From Candidatus Levybacteria bacterium RIFCSPHIGHO2_01_FULL_41_15 (GTDB taxonomy: Bacteria; Patescibacteriota; Microgenomatia; Levybacterales; UBA12049), in contig MFNV01000009.1 of the NCBI GenBank assembly GCA_001782165.1, positions 122,283 to 186,282 of the forward strand: a DNA stretch of 64,000 bases. Reading direction: 5' to 3'. Of this stretch, positions 9,462 through 24,694 are shown piece after piece (within the stretch, counting starts at the first letter, position 1; the number at the start of each line of letters is the position of its first letter). The notes under the pieces were generated by a model that did no database searches, was not told the DNA's origin, and saw nothing but the letters and a program-made list of their open reading frames with translations. The position numbers and the translations under genes were made by a program.

Positions 9462-9962
9462 TCAGTAATTTTCACAAAAACTTAAAGTTTTCCTGGGTGG
9501 GGCAAGATAGGGGTTTGGGACATATGGAGAGGTTACTTTAACTTCTAGTTGGCAAGCTTCCTCCCTTTTTACTCCAAGCTTTGTAATAAAAGCCATCTCC
9601 GCATTCAGTCTAGTCTGTGAGGAGGAGGTTGATATATTAATTATAAATTGACTAAATCTTGTTAAGTAAGCAATTTGGAAATCTCCTTCTTTGATAAAAA
9701 GCACGTCTCCTTCACTATTGGTTTGTATGGGGCTTTTTAGGAAATTATTTGTTTTGACACCTGAAATAATTATTTTATCTGATTGGGGGATTCTAGTTCT
9801 CTCCTCTATTTTTGTCGGAGTTGGAATCTCCCCCTCTTGTCTTTTGTGTTTTGAAGGAAAGAAGAGGGAGAGGAAAAAATAAATTAACCCTAGAGCAATT
9901 AGGGTTGAAAAAAGAATGATAGCAATTCTCTTCATAGACCTATTTAAAAACTTATACCACAC
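9462..9962 (-). CDS. small bitopic secreted/membrane protein, unknown (possible VirB8-like accessory)
   Basis: 166 aa with an N-terminal TM (IAIILFSTLIALGLIYFFLSLFF) and a ~120-aa ectodomain. It is adjacent to the T4SS-like hydrolase gene. Confidence 0.35.
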   Translation of the reverse strand: MWYKFLNRSMKRIAIILFSTLIALGLIYFFLSLFFPSKHKRQEGEIPTPTKIEERTRIPQSDKIIISGVKTNNFLKSPIQTNSEGDVLFIKEGDFQIAYLTRFSQFIINISTSSSQTRLNAEMAFITKLGVKREEACQLEVKVTSPYVPNPYLAPPRKTLSFCENY

Positions 9963-11752
9963 TTAGTCAATATGTTTTTTACCGAGAGGCGATCTTCCCG
10001 ATCTGTATCCCAGACACCCCATGGTTCCCAGCTGGCCCAGTTTTCGCGTATTTCACTTGCTTTGAGTATGTTTTGGGTGGGGTTTTTCCAGTTGGACTCG
10101 CAGGCATTTCTCAAAGGAAGGCTTAAAATGTTATCGCAGGACTGATCGCCCCAGGCACCTGCCCCATATGCACCCGAGCAGTGGGCGACTGCATTTATTT
10201 GGAAAAGACCGATGCTGTAGTCGTTGGTTTGGCAATTGTCGTTTATTTTAAATGGATAACCTCCGCTCTCCGACTCGCATATCAAAGATGCGGTAAGGGC
10301 CTTTATCGGATCATTTCCAAAATAGGGCAAAAGATTGGCTACCGAGCAATAACCAGTCCCTTCGTATTGTTGTGTGCATGTGTTGCTTGATGTATTGCTT
10401 GATACAATGCACATTCCAAGTTCCTTGTCTGCCGCAACCCATCCTGGCCGTGTGTCCGTGCTTCCTGCGGGAGCAGATTCTGGATTTGGAATGTCTTTTC
10501 CCATAGAGATATGGACATGATCAATTGCGCTTGATCCAACAATTGTCCCTGAGGGATAAGACCTCCCGGGTTGCAAGCCAGTAAATCCGATGTGGCCTAG
10601 AAATAAAGTCCAGTTCTTGTTCCCTTCTAGATAACTGACAAAAACAAACTCCTTACCGCAGCTTCCATTAACTGGTTTTGTACAGTCATTTTTTTTAAGA
10701 TCAAAACGGTTAGCAAAAACCCAGTTTACACTTTTTCCTTCAATTGCTGGTAGAATTATGTTTTTTCCCTCTGTGGGGACGTCAATTGACTTTGCCCGTC
10801 TCGAGTTTGGGTCGCATTCTACTGGATAATTAGTTCCGCAGTGTCCATTCACAGTATCTGCCTGATATGAACCAAAAGAAACTGTTCCACCTGGAACAGG
10901 GCAGCTTGCAATTGATATAGCCGGATTTGGAGTAGTAGCAGGATTTGCCGACCCGCTACCACCGCCGGTTGCCACGATTATTATTATAACAAAGATAACT
11001 ATTATAAGAATAACTGCAGTAATAATCCATCCCACAGGATTTGATTCTGCAGCGACCACTCCGGTTCCGACGGCAGCTACCCCTCCTGTGGCTGCTGCAG
11101 CACCCGCTCCCGCTCCAACAGCTCCTGCTCCTGCGCCGACTGTTCCCACGCCCACAGCGGCAGTCCCTGCGCCAGCACCTGCTGCTCCGGTCCCTACTCC
11201 AGCAGCACCGACTCCTACTCCAGCTCCCATAGCTGCAGCTTCGCCAGCACCAGCGCCCACGCCTGTAGCAGCTGTGAGGCCTGTTCCTGTACCCACTTCC
11301 AAGCCAGCAGCCGCTCCCACCTCAGCACCTGTGCTAATCCCAACGCCTGCAGCTTCAGCTCCTGCACCAGCGCTAATTGCCTCAACTCCCGCTGACTCTG
11401 CTGTTGCAGTCTCAATAATTGAACCTGCCTCGGTTCCTGCAAGCGGAGCTTCCGTAGTAATTTCTGCCCCAGCGGTTTCAGCGCCAACAGAAGGTTCAAT
11501 GGCTGATTCTTCCGCAACGGCAGTTTCCCCAGGAACCGCAGCTGTTTCAGCTTCTGGGGCAGTTCGGATTTCAGAAGGTGTTTCAACTGCGGTCTCAGTG
11601 GTTTCCTTAATTTCTCCTTTGGTTTTGCCTCGCAGGCGTTTGATAAAATCTACGGCCCTTTTTAAAAACCTATATCTGTCATACCACCTGAAGCCCTTTT
11701 CTATACGACTTTCCTGTCTTTCTTCTTTTGGATTTTCCCCTGTTTTCTCCAT
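9944..11752 (-). CDS. membrane-anchored cell-wall hydrolase: M23/LytM-like + GH23 lytic transglycosylase (VirB1-like), with Ala/Gly/Thr-rich cytoplasmic tail
   Basis: 602 aa. The N-terminal ~230 aa are low-complexity (AG/TG/EA repeats), then one TM (WIITAVILIIVIFVIIIIV). An M23-like block follows (SIDVPTEGKNIILPAIEGKSV ... GHIGFTGLQPG ... HVHISM), then the SLT signature ESESGGYP...YSIGLFQIN. Confidence 0.6.
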   Translation of the reverse strand: MEKTGENPKEERQESRIEKGFRWYDRYRFLKRAVDFIKRLRGKTKGEIKETTETAVETPSEIRTAPEAETAAVPGETAVAEESAIEPSVGAETAGAEITTEAPLAGTEAGSIIETATAESAGVEAISAGAGAEAAGVGISTGAEVGAAAGLEVGTGTGLTAATGVGAGAGEAAAMGAGVGVGAAGVGTGAAGAGAGTAAVGVGTVGAGAGAVGAGAGAAAATGGVAAVGTGVVAAESNPVGWIITAVILIIVIFVIIIIVATGGGSGSANPATTPNPAISIASCPVPGGTVSFGSYQADTVNGHCGTNYPVECDPNSRRAKSIDVPTEGKNIILPAIEGKSVNWVFANRFDLKKNDCTKPVNGSCGKEFVFVSYLEGNKNWTLFLGHIGFTGLQPGRSYPSGTIVGSSAIDHVHISMGKDIPNPESAPAGSTDTRPGWVAADKELGMCIVSSNTSSNTCTQQYEGTGYCSVANLLPYFGNDPIKALTASLICESESGGYPFKINDNCQTNDYSIGLFQINAVAHCSGAYGAGAWGDQSCDNILSLPLRNACESNWKNPTQNILKASEIRENWASWEPWGVWDTDREDRLSVKNILTKCGISF

Positions 11753-11768
11753 AAGTCAATAATGTAAA

Positions 11769-13784
11769 TTAAGTTTTATTAAAAACCGGAGGGGCTTGGG
11801 GCTGCGCAGCTTGCGGTGTAGGGGAGGGAGCTTCGGGGAGAGACTCAGGAGGTGGAGGTTGTTGGGATGGCTGGGAAGGAGCTTGCTCAACAGGATTTTC
11901 CGGAGGGGAAGCAGCTTCCGCCTGCTCCTGCGATTCTTTTTGCTGGATCAATTCCTGAGGGTTTGAGGTTATTATTGTGTGCTCAAAGGGTGCTGCAATA
12001 ACTTTTATCACAACATGACTTTGTCCTGCAAAAAACAAACCTTCTCCTACATCTGATGAAAGAAGAAGCTCTTTTTCTCCTTGTGAAAGGTAAAAAACTT
12101 TTGAGATAAGATCTATTTCTGTAGGAGACTGTTTAAGAAGCATCTGTATTGATGAATTTGATAAAACTGCATTTCCGTAGTCGGTCGATAAGAAATCCTG
12201 AACATCCTGAGTTGCGGTTGTTAAAGCAAGATAATATTTTCGAGCACGTTTTGCGATTCCATAAACAAAAGACGCTGAATCTTCATATTTCATTATATAC
12301 CAGGCCTCATCTAAGACAAGAAGTCTTTTTTTAAGGCTTTTTCTGATTCTTGTCCAGACAAAATCCAAAATAATGTGCATGGCAATGGGGCGAAGTTCAT
12401 CCTCCAAAGCCTTAATTGAAAAAACGGTGAATGGGTTTGTAATATCAAAATTAGACTGCTGATTGAAAATTCCGGAGAGGCTCCCCTTTATAAATTTTTC
12501 AAGCCTTAAGGCAAGTCCTTTTGCTGTCTGATCCTCCATACCAATTAGAACTTTATATAAGTCTTCCATCAAAGGAGGCTGATTTTTTTGAGTCGAAGGA
12601 TCTGCAGTTACCCCTTTTTGTCTATAGGTTTCAACAAGAGCGCGGTCCAAGATTGCATCCTCGCCTGCAGACAGCTCTCCCATGACTATCCGCAAAAGCC
12701 CATGAAGGGAGAGTATTTTAAGCCCCAGCTCATTTTCGCCTTCCTCATAAAGGCCCGAGAGGTCAAATGGATTTATCTTAATCGGATCGGATGGAGTAAA
12801 GGATACATGTTCTCCGCCCAGTGTTTTGGAAAGAGCTTCGTATTCCCCTTCAGGGTCTATTATTATAACTTCGGTCCCAAACATAAACTGTCTTATGGCC
12901 TCAAGTTTTATCAAGTATGACTTTCCTGCACCCGATTTGCCTAATACCACTTCATTTGCGTTTTCCAAAGAATATCTGTCAAAAACTATTAGTGATCCAT
13001 TCTGCTCATTTATTCCATACATGATTCCCTTATCTTGAGTAAGAGTTGCAGATGTGAAAGGGAAAGTAGAGGCAAGAGAAGTTGTATCCATGTTCCTTGC
13101 AATGTAAAGCTTGTCAACACTTTGTGGAAGGCAAGATTTGAATCCTTCTTCCATTTGAAGTGTGGCAGGTTTTGTTATAAGAAGAATAGAGGATAAGGTT
13201 GATGTGAGTTTTTTTGAGGCCACATCAAGATCCTGTATCGTTTCTGAAAAAAGTGTTATGTAAAGACCGAACTGGAAGAATCTTTCGACTCCCTTTGCCA
13301 GTTGTTCCTGAAGCGAAAGAGCATCTTCCAAAGCTGCCTGAACCTTGGGATCAACTATCTTTCCCTCCTCTGTCTGTGACGAGATTGTTGCTTCCATCTC
13401 GGCAATCTTTCTTCGGATATCAGAAAGCACGTCATTTGAGGAAGCAGGGTAGCAAAACATCGAAACATTCATTGAATGATCAAAATCAATAAGAGGAGAA
13501 AGCCAATTGGGCGAAACAAATCTTGGATAACCTACAACAAAAAAGGTCCTGTAATAAAAATCACCTACTCTTATAAAGTTGAAATCTACTTCAACCGAAG
13601 GTGGGGCAATAATATCAAGAAGGGAGGATGTCCCCTTTTCAAGAATTTTGATTCCCTTTGCTTCTATTGTTTTTGCACCCTGCCTGTCCATTTGTCCTGA
13701 GCTCAGGGTTGAAGGACCGGCAGGCAGATCCTGCAAAGGAGTTTGATTATTGGTTTTTTGTTTTTTGAAATTTAAGAATTTCAT
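11769..13784 (-). CDS. virB4: VirB4/TrbE/CagE-family type IV secretion ATPase
   Basis: 671 aa with Walker A VVLGKSGAGKSYLIK, Walker B LLVLDEAWYIM, and an upstream CagE_TrbE_VirB-like region (RVGDFYYRTFFVVGYP). The C-terminal tail is Pro/Gln-rich. Confidence 0.85.
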   Translation of the reverse strand: MKFLNFKKQKTNNQTPLQDLPAGPSTLSSGQMDRQGAKTIEAKGIKILEKGTSSLLDIIAPPSVEVDFNFIRVGDFYYRTFFVVGYPRFVSPNWLSPLIDFDHSMNVSMFCYPASSNDVLSDIRRKIAEMEATISSQTEEGKIVDPKVQAALEDALSLQEQLAKGVERFFQFGLYITLFSETIQDLDVASKKLTSTLSSILLITKPATLQMEEGFKSCLPQSVDKLYIARNMDTTSLASTFPFTSATLTQDKGIMYGINEQNGSLIVFDRYSLENANEVVLGKSGAGKSYLIKLEAIRQFMFGTEVIIIDPEGEYEALSKTLGGEHVSFTPSDPIKINPFDLSGLYEEGENELGLKILSLHGLLRIVMGELSAGEDAILDRALVETYRQKGVTADPSTQKNQPPLMEDLYKVLIGMEDQTAKGLALRLEKFIKGSLSGIFNQQSNFDITNPFTVFSIKALEDELRPIAMHIILDFVWTRIRKSLKKRLLVLDEAWYIMKYEDSASFVYGIAKRARKYYLALTTATQDVQDFLSTDYGNAVLSNSSIQMLLKQSPTEIDLISKVFYLSQGEKELLLSSDVGEGLFFAGQSHVVIKVIAAPFEHTIITSNPQELIQQKESQEQAEAASPPENPVEQAPSQPSQQPPPPESLPEAPSPTPQAAQPQAPPVFNKT

Positions 13785-14446
13785 ACCTGACTCCCCATTT
13801 TTATAATAGGGGTTTTAAGCTCATCGGTTATTTGATTAGTTTCGATGAGGGATCCGTTGAAGATCTCATAAAAAAGTTTGACCAGCTCTTCCTTCTGAAG
13901 AGTTTTTGCGCGAAGACCTAATCTTGCAAGCTGTGAGTGAACGGAGTCTCCCTTGGAATGAAGAGCTGCCTTTGCCTCTTCAAAAAAGGAGTCTTCGGAT
14001 ATTTGACCGGGCATAGCTTTTTTGGCTGCCCCAACCCCCTTTTCAAGATAGGAATATGGAATAACAATATAAAATTTTTTGTCAAGTACCGTATTTACTT
14101 TGACCAGCTCTCTTATAAAATCCCGGTAAAGCCTTATCTGGGAAGATAAAAGCTGATTTGTTGACCCCTGAGCCTGCTCTTCCAAAAGTTTTAAATAAGA
14201 GGAGATATCAAGCTTTTTGCTTCTTATAAATATCTGAATCGGGAAAGATAGGGAATTAAGAAGAGAAGCATAGGAAAAAACTTTTGTGTCCTGTTCTTCT
14301 TTTGAAAGAAGAGAGAAATTCGTGGCATTGACCTCAATTATAAAACAGGCATTTTTACCCGATAATATAACTATGTCCTCTTCGATTCCCTCAATTTCTA
14401 TAAATTTTTGCGTTGTTGCTCTCTTTTTTTGGGCAGTTTTAGTCAT
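13781..14446 (-). CDS. cytoplasmic T4SS-associated protein, unknown (resembles a VirB4 N-terminal domain)
   Basis: 221 aa with no TM. It is translationally coupled (4-nt overlaps) between the PrgI-like gene and virB4. The segment IEIEGIEEDIVILSGKNACFIIEVNATNFSLLSKEEQDTKVFSYASLLNSL resembles the N-terminal region of VirB4/TraC proteins. Confidence 0.35.
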   Translation of the reverse strand: MTKTAQKKRATTQKFIEIEGIEEDIVILSGKNACFIIEVNATNFSLLSKEEQDTKVFSYASLLNSLSFPIQIFIRSKKLDISSYLKLLEEQAQGSTNQLLSSQIRLYRDFIRELVKVNTVLDKKFYIVIPYSYLEKGVGAAKKAMPGQISEDSFFEEAKAALHSKGDSVHSQLARLGLRAKTLQKEELVKLFYEIFNGSLIETNQITDELKTPIIKMGSQV

Positions 14447-15654
14447 GATTTTTGAACGGGATTAAATAATTCTCTTCTAAGTTCTTCTCTTTTGTCAATT
14501 GAAATTATTTCAAGAGGCATTAAAACTTCACCTCTGGCTTCTATCTCAATAGTATCAAATTTATGTTCTCCCTTGGGATCTTCAAAAAATATAGTGTAAA
14601 CTCCGTTACCTAAGGGGGTTGCCGAAGCAAATTGACCTAAGACATTTGTTTTGAATGCTCTTACAGGATTTCCTTCCTCGTCTTTCACCTCAACAAGTAT
14701 ATTAGGAAGAGGATTATTTCTTGAGTCTTTTGCTATTCCCATAACCAAGTTTGGAACATCGGGAATAAAAGGGAGTCCTGCAGTTTTACTCAATTCTCTC
14801 GGAATTCTTCTTGCATGTTTTGTTTCAGGCTTGGGAGTTATAGTTGAGGGACTATAAATATTTTTTCCCTGCATCTTAAGTTTTTTTCTAAGCTCTATTA
14901 TTTGATTCTCCAAAATTTGTTTTTGTGAAGTCACCTCGCTTAAGACCTTTTCAATCTCAAGAATTTTTTGGTGGGCCATTTGGTATTGTTCTCCCGTCTC
15001 CTGTTTTTTTTCCAGATCCTTGGCTTCCTCAAGCTCTTTCTTGAGAACATCAGCCTTTTTGTCAAGCTCTTTTTCTTCCTCTTTTTTTTTGCCTTCGTCT
15101 GTTAAATTTACATTCTCTCTGATCTGATCTTCAAATATCTTTTCATAACCTCCCAAATTCTCCGATATGTCAGTTGGGGATCCTTTGCTCAAAGAAAGAA
15201 GAGAATTTAAAAAATTAAGCTCTTTTTCATCCAATTTATCTTTTGGTTTTTGGGGAAGATTTTTTAAAAACTCTTTAAGTTTTTGGGTGGAATCGGATGA
15301 AGTCATAAGCTTAGATACTGTTTGTACTTGACTTTCCTTGGGTGGCTTGGGGAACCACATATGACCACCTATTTTCTGATATATATACTGAGTTGGATTA
15401 AATAAAGCTTTTATGTAATTTGAAATCATAAGATCAAACGGCCGACCCTCAATAGGAACAAACGCCGCTCCCACCCCCAGGCCTACAAAAAGAAGAACGA
15501 GGGGGATTTTTATAAGGATAAAAATCGGGAGCGCAAAAGTTATCCAGCCTAGGACAACTCCTGTCGCAAGATAGGCAAATTGCTTAATGGTCATGTCCCC
15601 TATCAGCTTAAACTGAAAACCTGTAATATCTTGGGGAATAGGATGATTTTCCAT
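14443..15654 (-). CDS. PrgI/VirB3-like membrane protein fused to coiled-coil and C-terminal beta-sandwich domain
   Basis: 403 aa. N-terminal region (MTIKQFAYLATGVVLGWITFALP... then a second TM) resembles PrgI/VirB3-type small T4SS membrane components located directly upstream of VirB4. A K/E-rich coiled coil follows, and the C-terminus looks like a carboxypeptidase-regulatory-like fold. The true start is probably the Met at MTIKQ. Confidence 0.4.
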   Translation of the reverse strand: MENHPIPQDITGFQFKLIGDMTIKQFAYLATGVVLGWITFALPIFILIKIPLVLLFVGLGVGAAFVPIEGRPFDLMISNYIKALFNPTQYIYQKIGGHMWFPKPPKESQVQTVSKLMTSSDSTQKLKEFLKNLPQKPKDKLDEKELNFLNSLLSLSKGSPTDISENLGGYEKIFEDQIRENVNLTDEGKKKEEEKELDKKADVLKKELEEAKDLEKKQETGEQYQMAHQKILEIEKVLSEVTSQKQILENQIIELRKKLKMQGKNIYSPSTITPKPETKHARRIPRELSKTAGLPFIPDVPNLVMGIAKDSRNNPLPNILVEVKDEEGNPVRAFKTNVLGQFASATPLGNGVYTIFFEDPKGEHKFDTIEIEARGEVLMPLEIISIDKREELRRELFNPVQKS

Positions 15655-15964
15655 AATTTGAAAAGCAACTAGTTCCTAACCACTAGCGGCTAGTTGCTAT
15701 TTTTAACAGTGTATAACGTGAAAAAAATGCTTTCAAGACAGTCAAAATAGATCAAAAAAGAAAAAAAAGAGGCTAGTGTGAAAACTGAATAGTAAATCAC
15801 AAACTCTAAATAACAAATCCTAAATAATATTTAATTTCAAATGCTCAAAATCCAAAAAATTATTATATTCGAATTTTATACTTTGAATTTATCCTTCGAC
15901 GCTACTCAGGATGGTGAGCTTGTCGAACCATTTGGAGCTTGTAATTTTGGATTTAAGATTTAGT

Positions 15965-16342
15965 CTAATTGCAGTTTCCGAAGCCGAATTGTTTTATGCA
16001 GGAGACGCCAGTCAAAGCGCTTATAAAGTTTATTATTGCAAATGAAAGGAGAATTACAACAAGACCGATAATCGCATACGTAAGAGTTTCCCTTGCTTCT
16101 TTTACTTTATCCTCTGTTCCGCCTGACCTTATGTATTTGATTCCCGACCAGATGATGAAAAAAAGAGCTACTATTCCTCCTCCGACAAGCGCCCAGTTAA
16201 TAACATTCTGAAACACAGTCGGAATACACTGAAGAGTTGCGACGCTGTCTTTTACGCAATCTCCCCAGTCAACACCGGGAATGGTAATTCCGCCCCCTCC
16301 TCCGCCTGGAGGCGGAGGCAGTTTGGCAAGAAGTTTATCCAT
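15965..16342 (-). CDS. VirB2/TrbC-like T4SS pilin paralog 1
   Basis: 125 aa with two TM helices flanking IWSGIKYIRSGGTEDKVKEARETLTYAIIGL, a motif shared by all four paralogs. The N-terminus has a PPPPGGGGGG run. Confidence 0.6.
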   Translation of the reverse strand: MDKLLAKLPPPPGGGGGGITIPGVDWGDCVKDSVATLQCIPTVFQNVINWALVGGGIVALFFIIWSGIKYIRSGGTEDKVKEARETLTYAIIGLVVILLSFAIINFISALTGVSCIKQFGFGNCN

Positions 16343-16401
16343 AGTTTTAGATTAGCAAGAAAATTTTAAAAAAACAAGGAAAGATAGAGAAACTCTAAAT
16401 T

Positions 16402-16800
16402 TTACTGGAGCTTTAATGTGGGAAGAGTGAAGGTGGTTATGGTTTTACCGAGGAAGAATCCGACGACAAGATTCAAAATGAAGTATGCCAAAAAGACTAT
16501 TACAAGGCCGACGACTGCGGCAACAATCGTGTTTCTTGCAGCTTCGACATTAGTTTTATCTCCACCCGACAGAATCCACTTAATCCCTCCCCAAATTAAG
16601 AACCCTAATGCAATAAGAACCGCAAGTATGAAAAGAAGGGTAATAACATTTCCGACTACGTTCCCAAAATTACTTGATGTGAGTTTGCAAAGACCGGCGA
16701 AGTCGCCTGTGGGACAAGTGTCAACTGTATCAGCAAAAGCCAAAGCTGGGGAGAGAAGATAAGATGAAAATGCGGCTGTTGTAGCAATTAATTTTTTCAT
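16402..16800 (-). CDS. VirB2/TrbC-like T4SS pilin paralog 2 (with signal peptide)
   Basis: 132 aa with signal peptide MKKLIATTAAFSSYLLSPALAFA and the pilin core LIWGGIKWILSGGDKTNVEAARNTIVAAVVGL. Confidence 0.65.
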   Translation of the reverse strand: MKKLIATTAAFSSYLLSPALAFADTVDTCPTGDFAGLCKLTSSNFGNVVGNVITLLFILAVLIALGFLIWGGIKWILSGGDKTNVEAARNTIVAAVVGLVIVFLAYFILNLVVGFFLGKTITTFTLPTLKLQ

Positions 16801-16887
16801 CTTTAATTAAATGCTATATAGATTTTCACAGTTTGTCAAGCCCCGATTTAACAATTGAGCAATGGAACAATAGAGCAATTGGATTTT

Positions 16888-17196
16888 CTAGAAAATCCTT
16901 ATATTAAAGAATCCGAAAATAAAGTTTATCATAAAAAATGAAAAAAAAGCAATAATCAAACCTACAACAGAATAAGTCAGTCTAAGTCTTGCCTGTTCAA
17001 TTCTTTGTTTATCTCCGCCTGATGTTATCCATTGAATTCCTGCCTGAATCATATAAAAAAGAGCAAGAAAAATCGCCGCAAGAAGAAGCAAAGTAACTCC
17101 TCCCTGAATGATTTTTGAAATGTTCCCTCCTGTTGGAACCTCGCTAGGCGGCTCAATTTCCCGCCCTCCTATTGTAATAGCTATTTTATTTAACAT
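16888..17196 (-). CDS. VirB2/TrbC-like T4SS pilin paralog 3
   Basis: 102 aa with core MIQAGIQWITSGGDKQRIEQARLRLTYSVVGL. Confidence 0.6.
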   Translation of the reverse strand: MLNKIAITIGGREIEPPSEVPTGGNISKIIQGGVTLLLLAAIFLALFYMIQAGIQWITSGGDKQRIEQARLRLTYSVVGLIIAFFSFFMINFIFGFFNIRIF

Positions 17197-17250: not shown

Positions 17251-18180
17251 TTATTTTATAAAGTCTGGAATGCGTAAAATGTTAAATCCGATTACTTGAA
17301 GAATCACAAAGGAGAATATTATAAAAACAAGCCCTATTATCGCGGCAATTAGCTGATCCCGCGCTGCCTCCAAAGCTTCAGGTTTGCCCCGCGCTGCTAT
17401 AAGCTGATATCCCGAATAGATTATGAGAAGAAGTGCCAGTCCTCCTGAAAGAGAAAGAATAATACCAAAGATTGATTTTATAAGACCCGATGGATCTGTG
17501 CCAATATCTATTCCAAGGCCGGTTGTTACAGAAGTGCAGATTTTTATTTGTTTTTCATCTGTGGTTAAATTCCCTTCTTTATCAAATCCCTTGGAACAGG
17601 GTGGAGGAGGGGGGCTGGGATCAGGTTCTTCGGGTTTTGGCTTATCTGACTGAGGAGAGCAAATTGTATCATATTTCTCAATTTCCAACGTCCATGTCTG
17701 CAGAATTGTTTTTTTAAACTTATCCTTATCAAGGTTGGCTACTAACCCGCATGAATAAACCTTACACTCAGAATTAGCTGGATCGCAGAGTTGGGAATAA
17801 AGACATCTGTCATTATCAGTTAAACCAGAATCATCTCCGCATTTGCCATCAGAAGATATAGGAGGAAGACATCTATACACTCCGTCATTTTCCCTGCAGT
17901 TAAATTCCTGACATCCTGCATCTGTGCAGGGCTGGGTTGACAGGCAAAACGGCGAATTTTCATCGTTGCATTCTATAGGGGAGTTATAAGGATTCGTTTG
18001 GGGGGCAGGGCCTCCGCCTGTATCTCCTGTCTCTACTGCCAAAGAGGGCGGGGGTTTGAAAATTAAAATAAGGAGAATTATTACAACAACTCTTAGAATT
18101 TGTCCCACAATTTTATAGTAGACAAGTTGAGAATACTTTGCAAGAGCCGTCAAGCTATGCTTGGAATTTTCAATTTTCAA
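17251..18180 (-). CDS. Cys-rich ectodomain fused to C-terminal VirB2/TrbC-like pilin domain
   Basis: 309 aa. An N-terminal TM anchor is followed by a ~170-aa domain with ~22 Cys and a PPPPP linker. The C-terminal 70 aa are a pilin core (IIYSGYQLIAARGKPEALEAARDQLIAAIIGL). The start is a TTG embedded in a 7-nt x4 tandem repeat, so the 5' boundary is uncertain. Confidence 0.55.
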   Translation of the reverse strand: MKIENSKHSLTALAKYSQLVYYKIVGQILRVVVIILLILIFKPPPSLAVETGDTGGGPAPQTNPYNSPIECNDENSPFCLSTQPCTDAGCQEFNCRENDGVYRCLPPISSDGKCGDDSGLTDNDRCLYSQLCDPANSECKVYSCGLVANLDKDKFKKTILQTWTLEIEKYDTICSPQSDKPKPEEPDPSPPPPPCSKGFDKEGNLTTDEKQIKICTSVTTGLGIDIGTDPSGLIKSIFGIILSLSGGLALLLIIYSGYQLIAARGKPEALEAARDQLIAAIIGLVFIIFSFVILQVIGFNILRIPDFIK

Positions 18181-18266
18181 TTTTCAATTTTCAATGAATT
18201 TTTAATGTTTCAAGCTTTAAATTTTAAAAACTTAGATTTGATTTCAAATTTCAAATTTAAAATTAT

Positions 18267-19619
18267 TTATGGTGTAAATTTTATTCCTCTTCCCTTAATT
18301 GTTTGCAAGTGAGATGGATTATTGGGGTCGTCTTCTATTTTTTTTCGAAGGCGAAAGATTAGCTGATCCAGAGCTTGATCGGTTACTCCTTCTGTTGATT
18401 TTGAATTTTTCCACACGGCGTTTATTACTTCCTCCCTTTCTACAATTTTATCTTTATTCTCAATCAGGAACTTAAGGAGCTTAAATTCGGAAGAGGTCAG
18501 AATATCAGAAAGGATACTATCTCCCTTTTTTATCTCGTTGGTGATAGGGTCAAACGAAATGACTTGATTACCCAATTGTTCGATTACCGTGATGAATTTT
18601 TCAAAAAGGGGAATTGAGATTTTACTGTTTTCTATTAATCCAACGTTTTGTAAATAGCCACTAGAAATTAGTTGGTTAGCAATTAGTGATTTCTGTTCGG
18701 AAGGTGTTAAGGAATACAAAATCTCATAAAGAGAACCTCTTATCGTTTTTTGCTCAAGCAAAAAACTCTGTAACCCTATTCTGGTTGCTAGTTGCCAATT
18801 GCTAGTCGCTAATCTTGTCTCAAGACAAAGCCTTGTTAATTTTCCGTGGCCTGCGGTTAGTGAAATTATTTTGTTAGTTAGTTTTTCGTTTATTCTTTTA
18901 CCGCTTACTTTTTCAAGGTATGAGATTCGGAAATCAAGACCGGGCTTGTCAAATAGCGGTAAATAAACGATGTTTCCTGCCAAAAATTCATAAAAATCCG
19001 AGAAAAGCATTGGTTCTATCAAATCCTCAAGGGGTCTATTAAGAGAAAAAACAACAGAGAATCTGTATTTTGCCCTGTTTCTCAAGATTCTAAGATTGGC
19101 AAAAAATTCAGATGAGAGCATTGGTACATATTCTTCAAATCTGTCAAACAGAAAGACTACTGTAAGTTCTTTCTCAATACAAAGGTAATCAATTGCTTTT
19201 TTAAGGCCCCCAAACAAAACCATCTCGTCATTGGTCAGAAGCGATTCTTTGAAAATCTTATCCATGGTTTCATGTTCCTGCATTTTTCTTTCTCTTAATG
19301 AATCAACAAGTGAAAGGAAGATGAATTTTGTTGCCTCAAATAAGGGCTTTTTTCTAATCTCCGAAAAATTTAAGAGGACAAAATGAAACCATTTCTGGTC
19401 TTCTCCTAAATGTTTTAACCGGACAGTGCGGTTATAAGATAAAAGACCCAAAAGATTTGATCTTCCAACCCCGGGAAGACCAATAAGCTGAGCCGATTTT
19501 CCTTCCTTTGCAAACCTTAAGATTTTTTCTATTTCATCAAATCTTGAATTTTCAGGGTATAATGATTCGAAATGAGCCAGTTCACTACCATCGACCATTG
19601 ATGATTTATTATTTACCAT
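18267..19619 (-). CDS. putative transcriptional regulator: N-terminal P-loop NTPase-like (STAND/AAA-like) + C-terminal OmpR/PhoB-type winged helix
   Basis: 450 aa. A degenerate Walker A (LIGLPGVGRSNLLGLL) and hhhhD (VVFLFDRFEE) sit at the N-terminus. The C-terminal ~95 aa (SSEFKLLKFLIENKDKIVEREEVINAVWKN...ALDQLIFRLRKKIEDDP...LQTIKGRGIKF) is a clear trans_reg_C wHTH. Confidence 0.55.
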   Translation of the reverse strand: MVNNKSSMVDGSELAHFESLYPENSRFDEIEKILRFAKEGKSAQLIGLPGVGRSNLLGLLSYNRTVRLKHLGEDQKWFHFVLLNFSEIRKKPLFEATKFIFLSLVDSLRERKMQEHETMDKIFKESLLTNDEMVLFGGLKKAIDYLCIEKELTVVFLFDRFEEYVPMLSSEFFANLRILRNRAKYRFSVVFSLNRPLEDLIEPMLFSDFYEFLAGNIVYLPLFDKPGLDFRISYLEKVSGKRINEKLTNKIISLTAGHGKLTRLCLETRLATSNWQLATRIGLQSFLLEQKTIRGSLYEILYSLTPSEQKSLIANQLISSGYLQNVGLIENSKISIPLFEKFITVIEQLGNQVISFDPITNEIKKGDSILSDILTSSEFKLLKFLIENKDKIVEREEVINAVWKNSKSTEGVTDQALDQLIFRLRKKIEDDPNNPSHLQTIKGRGIKFTP

Positions 19620-19694
19620 GTTTGTTAAATTACAAATTCAAAATTACAAATAACAAATAATTGCAAAGTTATAAATACAAAATTCAAAACAACT

Positions 19695-20057
19695 TTATCT
19701 ACTTTTTTCTAAGATTGCAGCAAAAATTTTAACAAGCTCGGTAGTTTCTTGCAATAGTGGAGTAATCTTATTCTTGAGTTCCGGGTTTGCCTCTTCGATC
19801 AATTGTAACCAGTAAATTGTTTCTTTTCCTTCTTTTCTGCAGATTCTAATTCTAAATGAGAAATCTTTCTTTGTTTCTGTTTCATTTGCTTCTCGATAGT
19901 TAGCACCCATAGAAGTTCCGGAACGAATAACTTGATCGCACAAATTAAAGTTAATTGTGTTTTTCGGCAAGTCTTTAGCTAAGTGAATAATTTTTTTTCC
20001 AAATTCAAGCGTTCTATCTTCTAAATCGTACTTTTTATTATTTTGGTTATTTGACAT
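19695..20057 (-). CDS. four-helix-bundle protein (23S rRNA intervening-sequence protein family)
   Basis: 120 aa; the motif ...QVIRSGTSMGANYREANETETKKDFSFRIRICRKEGKETIYWLQL... is typical of the PF05635/TIGR02436 family. Confidence 0.6.
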   Translation of the reverse strand: MSNNQNNKKYDLEDRTLEFGKKIIHLAKDLPKNTINFNLCDQVIRSGTSMGANYREANETETKKDFSFRIRICRKEGKETIYWLQLIEEANPELKNKITPLLQETTELVKIFAAILEKSR

Positions 20058-20180
20058 TTTAATTTATTTGGAACTTGTAATTTTGTACTTGTAATTTTCC
20101 TTACTACGTAAGGATATTGTAATCTTCTTGAAAGCTAATTATCAAGCGCTTCGGCTTCGCTAAGTGTAAACTTCCCTCGT

Positions 20181-22961
20181 ATGAAAGAGTTTGATTTGAC
20201 AGGCAGAGCTAATCGCCCTACACTTGAAGTGAAGGGAGATATTTTTATGTCAGAACCCGGACAAAGAGAACAGCCGCCAAAACAGCTCGAACCTGCCTCT
20301 GGAGCTGGTGGAGGATCTCCGCCAGAAAAACCACCAATCACTACATCCGGAGAAGCAAATGGCAATGGGGAAGATTCTGGTGAACAGGCGCCAAATATAA
20401 AGACCGGCCCTGCGAAATGGAAAAACAAAGATAATGATCAGCCTATTGTTGTTACAGAGTATGCAGGTAAAGGTCCAGACGGTAAAGATTATGTCAATAT
20501 TGAAGGAAGCGAAACCAGTGTTCCTCTTGATGAAATAGAATATCCACAAGAAGAAATTCCAGCTGCAGGCGCAGGCGGAGGAGAGCCTCCCGAAGAACCC
20601 CCAGAGGTAGTAACTGCAGAAGAACCTGGGGAGAGTGACGGTGGTGAGGATCGTGGGGAAATTAAAGAATATATAAAGGCATTAAATAAGTTATTGTCAG
20701 ATGAAGAAGTAAGAAGGGTATTGATTTCGGATAACCCAGACTTTGATCAGCTCCCTCAGCTAGAAGAATTTATAAGAAAGTACATGAGTCCTGCAGACAG
20801 GAGCGGAAAGATAGGCCATTTTGCTAGATTTGTTACCGGAAAAGATAATGATTTTTCTTCTACATCAAAGAAGCTTATATTCGAGCGTTTACTTGAAAAA
20901 ATTATAGGCATGACAGATAAAACTCCCGATAGGCCATATCATGCTGATTCGGGCAATATATATGTTTCATCCAACTTACAAGAGCTACTTGAAGTAGCAA
21001 GGGCAAATTTGGCTGAAGATTTTCCATATTTCGGAAACCTTGCTTATGTAAGAGAAGTTGCTCATGAATTGAATAGAAATCTTAAATACGGGGAGCAATA
21101 CAAAAAATATGTAACAGAAAGTTTGCGTACCGGGGGACTTAATTTTATGCATAATAGAATTGCAGGTGTAAGTGCAGTTATAAGAGAGTATGAAAGAATA
21201 AGTTCATACAGAATAAGACAAGTAAAAACCTGGTTTTCAGAAAAGGATATAAGGGCAATAGACAGTGAGGTAGAAGAGATGATAAAAGATCATTCGAGAG
21301 AAGAAATGAAGATAGGTAATAGGAAATTATCAGATTGGGAGATTGAAAGGGCTTTAAAAATAGGTAAAATTCTCTTTGCAGGAAGCCAAAGACTGGCCGC
21401 GTATGCTGCTGCAGGGGATCTTCCTCACGACGCGTTGCTTACTGGACGATTTGGATCTGTTCCCTATGAATATATAGCAAGATCTTTATTTCCATTCAAA
21501 ATGACTTCCCCAAGGTTTTTTGCTGGAGCAGGAGGTTCAAGAAGATACATGGAGAGAATATTTGAAGAACAAAAGAAAGATAGCCCGTGGTTTGATGAGA
21601 AAGAAAAAAAATCAAAGCTTTATTCTCTCTTTGGACTTGATGAAAGAACCATCCTTATGGATAGTTGCGGAGCTATGGATTCTCAGACTCAGGCATGGAG
21701 AGCGGAAATGATGTTTTTGGGAGCCATTACGATGAACATAGACGGAGAACACGTTAACTTACTGGATTACTTGAATGAGTTTGCTGTTCTACACGGTGGA
21801 AAATCAGGAGATCCTAAGGATCAGATTCTGGGTGGAAGGGGCGTTGATGAGAAGGAAAGACCAAATTTTTCAAAAGACGTTAGAAATGTAGTAATGGGTC
21901 AAAGATTATATTTATCTAATCTTGCTCGATACGGAAATTTTGATGACGTCCTAAAAGCGGATATCTGGCAAAAAATTAGTCTTCTTACTCCATCAACAAT
22001 AGCATCTGTGGTTCCCAGAGCCATCGGCAAAGAAGATGAGAAAATATGGGAGCAGATGCGATATAAACTATATGCCGCTGAGAATAAAAGAATAAACAAT
22101 GATTCAGTAAGGTACAGGAAAGGGTTAACAAATGATGATTTAAAGGGCGAAAATGAAAAATTCAGTAAGGTTTTAGAAACTGTAAAAAAAGATGTTTGGA
22201 CAGAAGGAGATTTTGATACAATTTTGGAATATATGGGGATGGGAGAGCTGAAGCTAGAGATAGATGAGAAGAAATTACTGAAAAAAATAATAACAGCTGG
22301 TATAGAAGAGTCAGAGAAGCTTGGTAGGGCAAAACTTCCCTTTGCGTTTGCGATTGTCGATGCGCCTGAAGTAGCATGGTCTAAAACAGAGGATGGGACT
22401 GGAGGACTTGAGGATGAAGATTTGCTAAGGATACTTTTAAGTGATCAGGAATCATTTTCCAAGGCATGGACAGAAATGAACGGTCTAATAGAAAACCCAA
22501 CCGCAGGTTTACGAGAACATACAGCAAAAGCAGTTGAAGGAATAGGAATGGTAATAGGCAGAAAAAGCGCACAGGAAATAATTCGCCCATTTATAATAGC
22601 TTATATTAAGATGGCATCTACTACGCCTTCTTCAGAATGGATAGGCGATTTTCAAAAACTTCTTAGGCAAGCTACGTCAGAAATGGAAAGGTATTATAGA
22701 AATTCCCACATATCGTGGGATGCTAAAGAGAGAGAAATAACTCTTGAAGGAATGTCTCAAGATGGCTCAATCTCTGATGATATTTCTGAAGGAAATATAT
22801 CTGATCTAGATAAAGTTAAGAAGAAAACAAAATCGACCAGAAGAGCAACTTTTCTTAGAATGGCAAGATTAATAATTATGTTACTAGGTCCGGAGGCAGG
22901 TATATCATTTCTTAAACTTTTTGTGCCACAAGATTTACTAAACTCTTTACAAAAAAAATAA
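20181..22961 (+). CDS. large cytoplasmic protein of unknown function with disordered repeat-containing N-terminus
   Basis: 926 aa with no TM and no recognisable catalytic motif. The N-terminal 170 aa are acidic/Pro-Gly rich with a duplicated AGAGGG(S/E)PPE(K/E)PP unit. The start is possibly the downstream Met (MSEPGQ). Confidence 0.45.
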   Translation: MKEFDLTGRANRPTLEVKGDIFMSEPGQREQPPKQLEPASGAGGGSPPEKPPITTSGEANGNGEDSGEQAPNIKTGPAKWKNKDNDQPIVVTEYAGKGPDGKDYVNIEGSETSVPLDEIEYPQEEIPAAGAGGGEPPEEPPEVVTAEEPGESDGGEDRGEIKEYIKALNKLLSDEEVRRVLISDNPDFDQLPQLEEFIRKYMSPADRSGKIGHFARFVTGKDNDFSSTSKKLIFERLLEKIIGMTDKTPDRPYHADSGNIYVSSNLQELLEVARANLAEDFPYFGNLAYVREVAHELNRNLKYGEQYKKYVTESLRTGGLNFMHNRIAGVSAVIREYERISSYRIRQVKTWFSEKDIRAIDSEVEEMIKDHSREEMKIGNRKLSDWEIERALKIGKILFAGSQRLAAYAAAGDLPHDALLTGRFGSVPYEYIARSLFPFKMTSPRFFAGAGGSRRYMERIFEEQKKDSPWFDEKEKKSKLYSLFGLDERTILMDSCGAMDSQTQAWRAEMMFLGAITMNIDGEHVNLLDYLNEFAVLHGGKSGDPKDQILGGRGVDEKERPNFSKDVRNVVMGQRLYLSNLARYGNFDDVLKADIWQKISLLTPSTIASVVPRAIGKEDEKIWEQMRYKLYAAENKRINNDSVRYRKGLTNDDLKGENEKFSKVLETVKKDVWTEGDFDTILEYMGMGELKLEIDEKKLLKKIITAGIEESEKLGRAKLPFAFAIVDAPEVAWSKTEDGTGGLEDEDLLRILLSDQESFSKAWTEMNGLIENPTAGLREHTAKAVEGIGMVIGRKSAQEIIRPFIIAYIKMASTTPSSEWIGDFQKLLRQATSEMERYYRNSHISWDAKEREITLEGMSQDGSISDDISEGNISDLDKVKKKTKSTRRATFLRMARLIIMLLGPEAGISFLKLFVPQDLLNSLQKK

Positions 22962-22963
22962 AA

Positions 22964-24694
22964 TTATCCTACGCCGAATCTTCGACCGAATGCTCGTAGT
23001 TTTCCGACTTTGCCGTAACTTACCCTTCCTGTTGCTTGATCATAACCTGCCAATCTATATTCCTCAGAACCGGCTATAGTTTGACCTACACCCTTAGCTA
23101 CAGAAATTGGGTAACCTGCTCCCGCTCCAACTGCGGCACCGATTGAGGAGAGGTCGATTTTGGGTGCCTTGAGAGCTTCTCTTAATGTTGTTACAATTCT
23201 TGGCGCAGTCAATATGATTCCAAGGGCAATTATTGCGCCGAAACGCTCTCCATTGGGGTTTCCTATAAAAGGCGGCACGAACATGTCTCCCCCTCCTGCA
23301 TCAAAAAGATGCATAAAAGTCTCTCCCAGAAGGAAAAGAACAAGAGTTGCCGGGAAAGCCGCAAGGTTTGAAATAAGACTTCTGAGCCAGGAGGTAAAGC
23401 TGATTGTACTTCCCGGGAAAAGTCCTGCGACAATCCAGAAAGGCGCAAATACTATGTCTATGAGAATCATTATATAGGCCTGAAGAAGGATAAACCAGAG
23501 TCTAAACAGCGCCCAGAGAATTGCAATAAGAATCACCAGAAATGCAATTATACCGGCCAACCCTCCGATTACGATCTTCCCAGCATAGTTTGTAAGGTCG
23601 CACGCTCCTCCTCCAAATAACCCAAAACCAGAAGTTATAAAATTGAGGGCTCCGCTTAAAAAACCTCCCACAACAGGAAGACTTTCAAAAATCGCACAAG
23701 TACTCCCCGCAACCGCACCAATAGGCCCGGCAAGTATGAAACCAAGTACTGCGGTTATAATACTGCCTAAATAAGTAGTAAAAAGACCTGGGGTGAGACT
23801 GGCTATTATATTACCCACACTATAAGAAGCATTAAACGCAACTGTAAAAATATTAAATGTATCATGCGCAACACTAAAAGGAGAAGTATATAGCCGCGGA
23901 ACATCGTGTTCAAAGATATTTAGGATCAAATATAGGGCGACATACATAAGGTCAATAAGAAAAGCTGCAATTGCAAGAGAGAATGTCACAAGAAGTATCC
24001 CTATAATTAATTTGGGTATTTGGTTCTGCAAAGTCATGACAGTTCGCGGATCTATTTTTACCCTAAGCATTATTGCAACTCCTATAATCACAAAGACAAG
24101 GACAAACAGAAGATATACAATGTCTCTGAATTTACTCCAAAGAGGAATAAGAGGAGAGACTCTGGAGACGCCAAGTCCTGTATTCTGGGCATAAGTACTT
24201 TTTGCTATCCCAAAATTTTGAGCAAGATCTTTCATATAGTCTGCCGCGTGAACAGGAGCCGTATAGAGCATACCGATCATGCCTCCCATAAAACCCACTG
24301 CTCCTCCACCGCCTTCAACAAAGCCGATACTTCCGGTCTTAGGATCAACACCGAGGCATTTTTGTGAGACATTTGTCGGATCAATTCCCGAAAGCTGGCA
24401 GACAAGAGCGGACATTACTTCTATCATCACACTTTGGGTATAAGTATGAAGGTTTTTTGGGACATCAGGATTTGTGTTGGGGGCAGCGTAGGGATTGGTT
24501 TGGTTATTTTGGTAATTGGGTAGATTGGAGTTCGGAATGCTTACTGTCTGAGCAAAAGTTGGGGATTTAAAAATTAAGAATGAAAAAATAAAAAATAAAA
24601 AAACCAAAATAAGATACGGGCCCCACTTCGTTAAAACTTCCACCGTCGCTAAGGCTTTGGCGGACAAGTCGCGGGGCAAGGCAGGAAGTCTCAT
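22964..24694 (-). CDS. polytopic membrane protein, VirB6/TrbL-like candidate
   Basis: 576 aa with a signal/TM start and then ~8-10 TM helices with Gly-rich loops. Its size and topology fit the VirB6/PrgH-class channel subunits usually encoded with VirB4 systems. Confidence 0.4.
   Translation of the reverse strand: MRLPALPRDLSAKALATVEVLTKWGPYLILVFLFFIFSFLIFKSPTFAQTVSIPNSNLPNYQNNQTNPYAAPNTNPDVPKNLHTYTQSVMIEVMSALVCQLSGIDPTNVSQKCLGVDPKTGSIGFVEGGGGAVGFMGGMIGMLYTAPVHAADYMKDLAQNFGIAKSTYAQNTGLGVSRVSPLIPLWSKFRDIVYLLFVLVFVIIGVAIMLRVKIDPRTVMTLQNQIPKLIIGILLVTFSLAIAAFLIDLMYVALYLILNIFEHDVPRLYTSPFSVAHDTFNIFTVAFNASYSVGNIIASLTPGLFTTYLGSIITAVLGFILAGPIGAVAGSTCAIFESLPVVGGFLSGALNFITSGFGLFGGGACDLTNYAGKIVIGGLAGIIAFLVILIAILWALFRLWFILLQAYIMILIDIVFAPFWIVAGLFPGSTISFTSWLRSLISNLAAFPATLVLFLLGETFMHLFDAGGGDMFVPPFIGNPNGERFGAIIALGIILTAPRIVTTLREALKAPKIDLSSIGAAVGAGAGYPISVAKGVGQTIAGSEEYRLAGYDQATGRVSYGKVGKLRAFGRRFGVG

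Follow-up and report, generated by a model that had tools for sequence, protein, structure and literature searches.

A type IV secretion-like gene cluster with a conserved core and a hypervariable periphery in the origin region of a Levybacteria chromosome

Introduction

Type IV secretion systems (T4SSs) in the candidate phyla radiation (CPR, or Patescibacteria) have been described both from co-culture and from genome surveys. In Southlakia epibionticum, genes SEML1_0006-0019 were essential in co-culture by transposon sequencing (Tn-seq), and the cluster has a Gram-positive-like composition, a series of pilins, and no coupling or relaxase proteins (Wang et al., 2023, Cell; PMC10633639). A survey of 3,035 genomes found CPR VirB4 to be a monophyletic clade nested in MPF_FATA (Quinonero-Coronel et al., 2025, Microb Genom; PMC12102498). 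Here, we describe a cluster of 13 genes from Candidatus Levybacteria bacterium RIFCSPHIGHO2_01_FULL_41_15, located at positions 9462-24694 of a 64,000-nt (64-kb) stretch, hereafter the window, that spans positions 122,283 to 186,282 of contig MFNV01000009.1 (GenBank assembly GCA_001782165.1). The cluster is very probably the Levybacteria (class Microgenomatia) copy of the Patescibacteria-clade T4SS; this system is already published, and the locus adds no new kind of system.

The same survey reported TrsD as the commonest partner of VirB4, along with PrgI/VirB3, VirB1 homologs that carry M23/LysM domains, and arrays of 2-11 VirB2-like genes, above all in Microgenomatia and Saccharimonadia (PMC12102498). 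The systems lie near dnaA/dnaN/rnpA, and those of class ABY1 co-localize with comF/recG/radA; VirB6 was scarce in Microgenomatia by hidden Markov model (HMM), with divergence suspected; 109 relaxases were found, in 103 genomes only; and there were 5,713 homologs of type IV coupling proteins (T4CPs), the genes for which often lie far from virB4 (PMC12102498). A 2025 review describes CPR T4SSs as the only monoderm T4SSs with VirB2 pilins and potential conjugative pili, and as the only ones required for growth (PMC12857230). In a cultivated relative, tubular structures, possibly T4SS pili, reach into the host, and the cell takes up and feeds on host RNA (bioRxiv 10.64898/2026.06.21.733656). The CPR T4SS belongs to a small number of machines with demonstrated essentiality for the epibiotic lifestyle of these ultrasmall bacteria. 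For the Levybacteria locus, an original prediction made by a model from the letters of the window alone had proposed a T4SS or conjugative-pilus apparatus serving attachment to a host or other cell, and its individual claims are taken up below with the results that bear on them.

Results

Core machine

Pfam and NCBIfam scans covered window open reading frames (ORFs) of at least 100 aa that were judged likely genes, with spurious antisense and overlapping ORFs left out, and every ORF named in the original prediction was found in place. Twelve of the 13 cluster genes are on the minus strand and one, the large gene described below, is on the plus strand. The proposed T4SS/conjugative-pilus apparatus was backed by family matches for VirB4, TrsD, PrgI, and the pilins. 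The core components are as follows.

11769-13784, minus strand: VirB4 ATPase of the CD1110/MPF_FATA type, 671 aa, without an N-terminal domain (NF045971, P-loop_TraG)
13781-14446, minus strand: TrsD-like protein, 221 aa, equivalent to a VirB4 N-terminal domain encoded by its own gene (NF041427, VirB4_plasma, CD1110)
14443-15654, minus strand: PrgI/VirB3-like protein, 403 aa (PF12666)
22964-24694, minus strand: putative divergent VirB6/TrbL-like polytopic membrane protein, 576 aa (PF04610 matches in orthologs)

The 671-aa ORF, correctly read as VirB4, scored 379.9 bits (cutoff, 325) against NCBIfam NF045971 ("VirB4-like, CD1110 family") over profile positions 183-732, matched Pfam P-loop_TraG at 1e-27, and has an intact Walker A motif (GKSGAGKS). 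It also matched CedB weakly (1.3e-14), and its closest plasmid homologs were monoderm (Firmicutes, Actinobacteria) VirB4 proteins at 30-37% identity. The adjacent small protein, which had been likened to a VirB4 N-domain, aligned along its entire length to TrsD (NF041427, 5e-5) and also matched an N-terminal stretch of Mycoplasma VirB4 (2.6e-11, profile positions 97-233) and CD1110 positions 3-169. As the window VirB4 matches the CD1110 profile only from position 183 onward, the pair of genes tiles a single long ancestral VirB4. BLASTP detected no similarity between TrsD and the window VirB4, as expected for complementary parts rather than paralogs, and a trsD-like gene was found in 77 of 80 related loci (see below). 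The trsD gene overlaps virB4 and prgI by 4 nt each, suggesting translational coupling of prgI-trsD-virB4, and the tightly packed minus-strand unit prgI-trsD-virB4-hydrolase-g166 (the last being the 166-aa ORF gene) is probably a single operon.

The PrgI/VirB3 fusion was likewise recovered, with PF12666 at 33.4 bits over residues 5-92 (gathering threshold, GA, 27). An N-terminal two-helix hairpin leads into a K/E-rich helical linker, which varies in length, and then into a C-terminal beta-sandwich-like domain of ~90 aa, for which a CarboxypepD_reg-like match was weak (8e-4, below GA). These ~90 residues are almost invariant: 69 orthologs of 269-473 aa were recovered, and the motif PNILVEVKD..GNPVRAFKTN.LGQFASATPL was present in all 14 ortholog C-termini inspected.

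The 576-aa protein had been proposed as a VirB6-like polytopic membrane protein. Its polytopic nature stood, with a signal anchor, an exported region of ~140 aa, and at least six transmembrane (TM) helices by TM prediction, but the protein alone had no Pfam or NCBIfam match, and its family profile found none among PDB sequences. PF04610 (TrbL/VirB6) was matched by three of 40 orthologs (~50% identity; best, 1.3e-7), and two of the 768 homologs in the family have precomputed PF04610 matches. In an AlphaFold model of poor confidence (predicted local distance difference test, pLDDT, 59.6), nine of the top 11 Foldseek PDB matches were R388 TrwI/VirB6 chains, with non-significant E-values of 0.2-1.2. 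This family is likely the "missing" divergent VirB6 of Microgenomatia, which offers a likely identity for the component that HMM surveys found scarce in that class; the available text of PMC10633639 and PMC12102498 does not make this identification.

Pilins

Three tandem pilins and a fourth fused to a Cys-rich ectodomain, as originally proposed, all matched PF18895 above its GA of 26.6 bits.

15965-16342, minus strand: VirB2-like pilin 1, 125 aa, two TM segments, Cys pairs in both tails (6e-12, 45.8 bits)
16402-16800, minus strand: VirB2-like pilin 2, 132 aa, Sec-type signal peptide and two TM segments (7e-11, 42.4 bits)
16888-17196, minus strand: VirB2-like pilin 3, 102 aa, two TM segments, no Cys (2.8e-6, 27.7 bits)
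17251-18180, minus strand: pilin domain preceded by an exported, Cys-rich N-terminal ectodomain, 309 aa (5.7e-9, 36.4 bits)

The pilin domains are 29-35% identical to one another. Pilin 2 also matched TrbC (2e-5), and the Mycoplasma-ICE (integrated conjugative element) pilin-like family NF045849 was matched by pilins 1, 2, and 3 (2.4e-7, 3.6e-4, and 5.7e-7, respectively). For all four pilins and TrsD, the best curated match was to a Mycoplasma-ICE family (NF045849, NF045975), below the family cutoffs. Part of the MPF_FATA lineage may thus have pilin-like proteins of its own, rather than ones borrowed from diderms, although this is no more than a hint. The pilin affinity to a Mycoplasma-ICE family is not reported in the available text of PMC10633639 and PMC12102498.

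In the 309-aa pilin (TM segments 23-41, 236-254, and 278-296), a signal anchor is followed by an ectodomain of ~185 aa with 14 Cys and then by the PF18895 domain at residues 232-297. The pilin domain alone aligns with relatives, in which the best-matching ORFs range from 108 to 647 aa and contain 2-31 Cys; the shortest of these may be ordinary pilin paralogs rather than true orthologs.

Chromosomal setting and absence of DNA-transfer genes

No relaxase or VirD4 had been evident in the original prediction, and among the ORFs scanned across the window no relaxase (MOB), VirD4/T4CP, or integrase family was found, although the origin of transfer (oriT) was not specifically searched for. The only canonical Walker-A ATPases in the window are DnaA and VirB4, and none of the window ORFs lacking an assigned function has a Walker A motif or matches a T4SS, relaxase, or coupling-protein family. 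The cluster is bounded by chromosomal genes on both sides.

6862-9456, plus strand: dnaA and dnaN, the chromosomal boundary on one side
24775-24862, minus strand: tRNA-Ser(GGA), the opposite boundary, 80 bp from the VirB6-like gene

The gap between the end of dnaN and the first cluster gene is 6 bp, and dnaN is preceded by dnaA, rnpA, yidC, and jag, which places the cluster in the chromosomal origin region. No att-like direct repeat pairing tRNA-Ser(GGA) with the dnaN end was found, and the tRNA gene is not an att site. GC content is uniform within the cluster and like that of the flanks, save for one bin of 50% GC in a low-complexity coding stretch, due to the Ala/Gly-rich hydrolase tail encoded there. 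The cluster intergenic regions had no match in Rfam at a permissive threshold. The other 40 kb of the window is housekeeping in content, including tmRNA, SmpB, two PBP1a paralogs, enzymes of glycolysis and the pentose-phosphate pathway, and ribonucleotide reductase.

The plus-strand gene at 28153-28848, 3.5 kb past the cluster and next to a tRNA-Ser pair and tmRNA, encodes a ComFC-like protein that combines a double zinc ribbon with a phosphoribosyltransferase. The Southlakia T4SS cluster is likewise trailed by comFC and tRNA-Ser, so the wider neighborhood may be anciently conserved.

Conservation and variation among relatives

A scan of one genome per species yielded 80 loci with a VirB4 63-90% identical to that of the window. 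Most of their records bear the names Levybacteria, Levyibacteriota, Microgenomates, or Patescibacteria, with Candidatus Levybacteria/Levyibacteriota (class Microgenomatia) in the majority among informative titles, and many other titles are uninformative or evidently wrong (e.g., "uncultured Gammaproteobacteria"). No close VirB4 relative was found in viral contigs. Where contigs allow, the gene order recurs in about 50 Levybacteria genomes as yidC-rnpA-dnaA-dnaN-[small bitopic proteins]-[bitopic hydrolase]-VirB4-TrsD-PrgI, followed by three pilins, the ectodomain pilin, the winged helix-turn-helix (wHTH) regulator, the [large ORF, opposite strand], and the VirB6-like gene; dnaA/dnaN adjoin the cluster in 53-58 of the 80 loci. 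This order identifies a vertically inherited chromosomal module rather than an ICE, in agreement with the original prediction, which had preferred an attachment organelle to a conjugative element and had named conservation of a chromosomal cluster without flanking att sites as a check.

Identity to the window proteins across loci varied considerably by component: it was 62-90% for VirB4, 38-78% for TrsD, 36-69% for PrgI, 32-71% for pilin domains, 45-77% for the regulator (with one outlier at 22%), and 30-55% for the VirB6-like protein. The conserved core is ringed by three hypervariable modules, namely the hydrolase cassette, the pilin ectodomain, and a helical protein of ~900 aa, a pattern of fast-evolving modules around a conserved core that is expected of host-specificity determinants. 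This three-module periphery is not described in the available text of PMC10633639 and PMC12102498.

Hydrolase cassette

Between virB4 and dnaN, the window encodes two proteins.

9944-11752, minus strand: VirB1-like bitopic cell-wall hydrolase, 602 aa, 14 Cys (SLT_3)
9462-9935, minus strand: small bitopic protein, 157 aa from Met10 (the 166-aa ORF extends to 9962)

The hydrolase has an N-terminal low-complexity tail of ~240 aa rich in Ala, Gly, Thr, and Glu, a TM segment at 243-261, a middle domain, and a C-terminal lysozyme-like domain. It had been described as a VirB1-like fusion of M23 and lytic transglycosylase; the latter part held, as SLT_3 matched residues 484-578 at 3.6e-5, just below GA, and an ortholog 48% identical across this region matched at 4e-10. 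The M23 part gained no such support: the middle domain had no M23 match in Pfam at E up to 1 and no significant HMM or PDB match, the hydrolase as a whole likewise matched nothing significant in PDB, and the best hit of its profile to PDB (E=0.97) was a phage hub aligned over an LLH...HLHIE-type motif. An invariant GHCG...SIDV...LxH...HVHI signature supplies residues compatible with a LAS-type metallopeptidase, and the conserved H...D...H...HxH pattern makes a LAS-type peptidase a possible identity for this domain. Two further ORFs, at 11088-11762 (plus strand; 224 aa) and 11215-11586 (minus strand; 123 aa), are artefacts of the GC-rich (50%) hydrolase tail.

In relatives, CHAP, SLT, SLT_3, M74, M15_4, and DUF11 domains swap at the hydrolase position, where the protein is usually unrecognizable by sequence. 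The virB4-dnaN interval of five loci (L010, L021, L044, L063, and L079) also encodes secreted HExxH (zincin-like) or M15-like proteins, along with as many as three small bitopic proteins. In the window, this cassette is minimal and consists of one hydrolase and one bitopic protein.

The 157-aa protein has a TM segment at residues 13-31, followed by an extracytoplasmic domain with a conserved pair of Cys at its end. It had no Pfam or NCBIfam family and just two homologs by word-indexed search, and tblastn found homologs in three loci. A local jackhmmer search (five iterations) matched small bitopic ORFs at the same hydrolase-dnaN position in 12 of 14 loci; the strong matches, six ORFs in five loci (L001, L021, L044, L063, and L076), have the Cys-pair motif at the C-terminus in common, whereas the TM segment and a Pro/Thr-rich linker may account for the weaker matches.

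Large hypervariable gene and its promoter

The plus-strand gene lies between the four-helix-bundle and VirB6-like genes.

20247-22961, plus strand: large hypervariable protein, 904 aa, assigned by position, no known domain (the 926-aa ORF extends to 20181)
20196-20224, plus strand: conserved sigma-70-type promoter of the large gene, TTGACA-17-TACACT, followed by the Shine-Dalgarno (SD) sequence GGGAGA and ATG 20247

This gene product had been put forward as a 926-aa protein of no recognized kind. The absence of a known domain was borne out, but the length was not, as the ORF most likely starts at ATG 20247, giving 904 aa. Most of the protein is alpha-helical; its N-terminus is disordered and rich in Pro, Gly, and Glu, and a hydrophobic helix lies at the C-terminus. 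It had no Pfam, NCBIfam, or PDB match, its family profile found nothing significant in PDB, and a Pfam scan of 40 family members returned one weak Tox-MPTase4 match and nothing else. A poor AlphaFold2 (AF2) model (pLDDT 63) gave non-significant Foldseek matches to HEAT/ARM-like folds. A word search of 5.8 billion proteins found nine homologs, and a profile search found 416 representatives. An ORF of 895-1126 aa was present in the same position and orientation in 14 of 14 examined loci whose sequence extends there, linked across loci by weak, chained similarity only. The protein is a candidate host-specific factor or substrate.

The near-consensus sigma-70 promoter is kept across very divergent orthologs of the large gene. 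The "Leu-Thr" codons upstream of the start are TTGAC[AT] in 15 of 15 sequences (the window and 14 orthologs). Four of five orthologs with short spacing (L053, L060, L063, and L067) have TATAAT/TATGAT 17 nt after TTGAC[AT], with its end 6 nt from the ATG, an arrangement that implies leaderless mRNA; the fifth (L079) has TATTCT at this position. An N-terminal "LT...IFM.E" peptide signal in the 926-aa family was considered and rejected because Leu-Thr is always TTGAC[AT]; the apparent motif is a promoter together with an SD or a leaderless start. In public databases, the gene calls carry the large-gene ORFs upstream through the promoter.

Regulator and four-helix-bundle gene

Two further minus-strand genes lie between the pilins and the large gene.

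18267-19619, minus strand: cluster-linked regulator, 450 aa (Trans_reg_C)
19695-20057, minus strand: four-helix-bundle protein of the 23S-rRNA-intervening-sequence (IVS) family, 120 aa (TIGR02436, PF05635)

The former had been called an NTPase-wHTH regulator. Its C-terminal OmpR/PhoB-type winged helix was confirmed (Trans_reg_C, 67.9 bits, 8e-19), but the Walker A of the N-terminal ATPase-like domain is degenerate (PGVGRS; PGxGRS in the family), and PDB matches were confined to the wHTH. GRS and LFDRFEE are conserved among 33 aligned sequences (the window and 32 orthologs). Of the 54 loci bearing pilin 1, 39 have the regulator beside the pilins. A conserved ATPase-like/wHTH regulator within the cluster is not described in the text available from PMC10633639 and PMC12102498.

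The predicted four-helix-bundle protein was borne out by TIGR02436 (80 bits, 1.4e-22) and PF05635 (8e-17). Its gene occurs in 10 loci only, at varying positions within the cluster (e.g., L004, L008, L013, and L025), and in the window it is bracketed by 66-nt inverted repeats (19627-19692 and 20032-20097; 71% complementary). The shifting positions and inverted repeats suggest a small mobile or IVS-like cassette, and the protein is probably a passenger rather than a machine part. A diversity-generating retroelement, suggested by the Avd-like four-helix bundle and the hypervariable proteins, was rejected, as neither a reverse transcriptase nor template/variable-repeat (TR/VR)-like repeats were found in the window.

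Repeats and other features of the window

An AT-rich repeat family with a consensus of about AAATTACAAATTCAAAATTACAAATAACAAAT occurs in many intergenic regions on both strands, within and beyond the T4SS cluster (copies at 15793-15856, 19626-19689, 24862-24964, 47949-48080, 53539-53583, and 62286-62349). Nothing in Rfam matched this family, which might represent a REP-like element, a site for a regulator, or a promoter/UP element. Tandem arrays of period 7 (18165-18195) and period 25 (19635-19689) lie upstream of the ectodomain pilin and the regulator, respectively. Downstream of pilin 1, a REP-like/terminator-like hairpin, TTCGAC-N21-GTCGAA (ggttcgacaagctcaccatcctgagtagcgtcgaagga), is located at 15903-15945 in minus-strand orientation, with a partly complementary copy at 24901-24960.

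A 35-nt segment of the tmRNA gene at 28929-28963 (GTCCCGCTGATAGTTTTCAGTCGGGATCCCGCCAT) is repeated with 89% identity at 53654-53688, intergenic after the GAPDH gene; a second small hairpin follows this copy, which had no Rfam match at E up to 1. An AdoCbl-II riboswitch (61961-62041, plus strand; 55.5 bits) lies between a ribonucleotide reductase of the B12-dependent type (59407-61959) and cob(I)alamin adenosyltransferase (61989-62681), overlapping the first-start-codon (GTG) ORF call of the latter. The class A penicillin-binding protein (PBP1a) paralogs are in tandem on the minus strand (38987-41197 and 41262-43433), with 72-79% nucleotide identity in several segments.

Discussion

A probable host-contact derivative of monoderm conjugation

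The locus is likely a chromosomally fixed, origin-proximal derivative of monoderm (MPF_FATA) conjugation that has lost the DNA-processing module, carries VirB2-like pilins, and serves host contact. With somewhat less assurance, we consider that the product of the cluster is probably a pilus or translocon of the VirB2 type, powered by VirB4 and used to contact a host bacterium, not to conjugate. The original prediction had favored host contact in the same way, which is the published view for Patescibacteria (PMC10633639, PMC12102498, PMC12857230).

On the R388 architecture, VirB4 and the separate TrsD N-domain would dock on the PrgI/VirB3 hairpin and the VirB6 channel at the cytoplasmic membrane, and the bitopic hydrolase would open the cell wall locally. 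VirB4 would then pull two-helix pilins from the membrane and polymerize a tube, on which the pilin with the Cys-rich ectodomain might be a minor, surface-displayed adhesin. The pilus or translocon would contact, and perhaps penetrate, the host bacterium and mediate the exchange needed for an epibiotic lifestyle, a step proposed because of the Tn-seq essentiality in Southlakia and the tubular structures in the cultivated relative. The promoters of the pilins and the large gene are probable targets of the wHTH regulator.

Several points weigh against this interpretation. Function is extrapolated from Saccharibacteria rather than from a Levybacteria isolate or experiment, and the pilus of CPR T4SSs is, in biochemical terms, a putative structure. 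The VirB6 assignment comes from homology that is transitive and from a fold ranking short of significance, and no NTF2/VirB8-like protein was recognized in the cluster, leaving it without an identified VirB8-like component. Finally, a T4CP or an unrecognized relaxase could lie outside the 64 kb, and T4CP homologs are common elsewhere in CPR genomes.

Alternative explanations

The main rival, which we regard as unlikely, is a nucleic-acid import machine of the ComB/Ced kind, in which the T4SS or pilus takes up DNA or host RNA. VirB2/3/4/6 without a relaxase or T4CP is also the composition of Helicobacter pylori ComB, and the weak CedB match of VirB4, the ComFC-like gene 3.5 kb away, the comFC adjoining the Southlakia cluster, and the comF/recG/radA co-localization in ABY1 point in the same direction, as do host RNA uptake and the tubular structures at the interface in the cultivated relative. 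However, deletion of comEC in Southlakia ends competence and leaves viability intact, whereas the T4SS is essential, and type IV pili explain DNA uptake (PMC12857230); moreover, comFC is non-essential in Southlakia, and no nucleic-acid-binding component was recognized in the Levybacteria cluster.

A still-conjugative T4SS whose relaxase and coupling protein are elsewhere or too divergent, serving, for example, chromosomal transfer, is very improbable. The inspected sequence is 64 kb of the genome, T4CP genes in CPR are both numerous and often far from virB4, as noted above, and the survey authors allow for "very different relaxases" (PMC12102498). Yet the 3,035 CPR genomes held 109 relaxases, the Southlakia T4CP is non-essential and its T4SS essential, the cluster is fixed at the origin and inherited vertically, and the unassigned window ORFs showed neither a Walker A motif nor a match to any T4SS, relaxase, or coupling-protein family. 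An ICE, or its decayed remnant, inserted beside tRNA-Ser(GGA) 80 bp past the VirB6-like gene would fit the descent of the machinery from monoderm conjugative elements but is effectively refuted by the lack of any integrase, relaxase, or att-like direct repeat, by a GC content matching the flanks outside the low-complexity stretch, and by the yidC-rnpA-dnaA-dnaN-cluster order in ~50 loci of Levybacteria metagenome-assembled genomes, with an analogous arrangement in Saccharibacteria.

In Levybacteria, the cluster is stably maintained on the chromosome in linkage with the origin and combines a conserved core with a fast-evolving periphery; a conserved regulator and a hypervariable ~900-aa partner are flagged as candidates. 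A tentative extension, which we rate as rather doubtful, is that the large protein, the pilin ectodomain, and the hydrolase/protease cassette are host-range determinants, the large protein either being translocated as a substrate or recognizing the host in association with the pilus or channel, and the wHTH regulator being dedicated to the system. If true, this would be the first candidate cargo and specificity system for a CPR T4SS.

Comparison with known systems

The fused architectures and the number of pilin paralogs had been thought unusual, a view that did not survive comparison, as pilin arrays of 2-11 genes, TrsD, PrgI, a missing relaxase, and proximity to dnaA are typical of the phylum (PMC12102498). 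Among better-known machines, H. pylori ComB (DNA uptake), Bordetella Ptl, and Brucella VirB (both protein secretion) are also chromosomal, free of relaxase and T4CP, and equipped with VirB2/3/4/6 (PMC12857230); however, these are diderm MPF_T systems with a VirB7-10 outer-membrane core, and their sequence affinity to the Levybacteria cluster extends to a shared superfamily only. The R388 Trw T4SS (PDB 7o3v/8rtd) provides a template for the VirB3-VirB4-VirB6 stalk and inner-membrane layout, but the matches of the 576-aa model to it were not significant (TM-score below 0.4), and the VirB5 tip and outer-membrane complex are absent in the Levybacteria cluster.

Also comparable are the MPF_FATA elements, specifically CTn2 (CD1110), pCF10 (Prg/Pcf), pGO1 (Trs), and the Mycoplasma ICE (Mbov_0395/0397), with which the locus shares a CD1110-type VirB4, a TrsD of the pGO1 type, a PrgI of the pCF10 type, and a bitopic VirB1-like hydrolase. 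Unlike these elements, the Levybacteria cluster has no relaxase, T4CP, or adhesin (PrgB) and is not on a mobile element, and it encodes multiple VirB2-like pilins, which classical Gram-positive systems lack.

The closest counterpart is SEML1_0004-0019 of Southlakia, although several details differ. Four pilins, one with a Cys-rich ectodomain, are present here, versus six in Southlakia; the VirB6-like protein is 576 aa, whereas that of Southlakia has 1088 aa and includes an ARM extension; the C-terminal domain of PrgI is beta-sandwich-like and highly conserved, in place of a helical domain; and the Levybacteria cluster has an embedded ATPase-like/wHTH regulator, no recognized NTF2/VirB8-like protein, and pilins on the virB4 strand. 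The skeleton is nevertheless the same, next to dnaA/dnaN and with comFC and tRNA-Ser just beyond in Southlakia (PMC10633639) and nearby in Levybacteria: both clusters are chromosomal after dnaA/dnaN, have no relaxase or T4CP within them, and combine VirB4 and a TrsD-like protein with a hydrolase of the lysozyme type, a C-terminally extended PrgI, a VirB6-like protein (putative in Levybacteria), tandem divergent PF18895 pilins, and large helical proteins of no recognized family inside the cluster.

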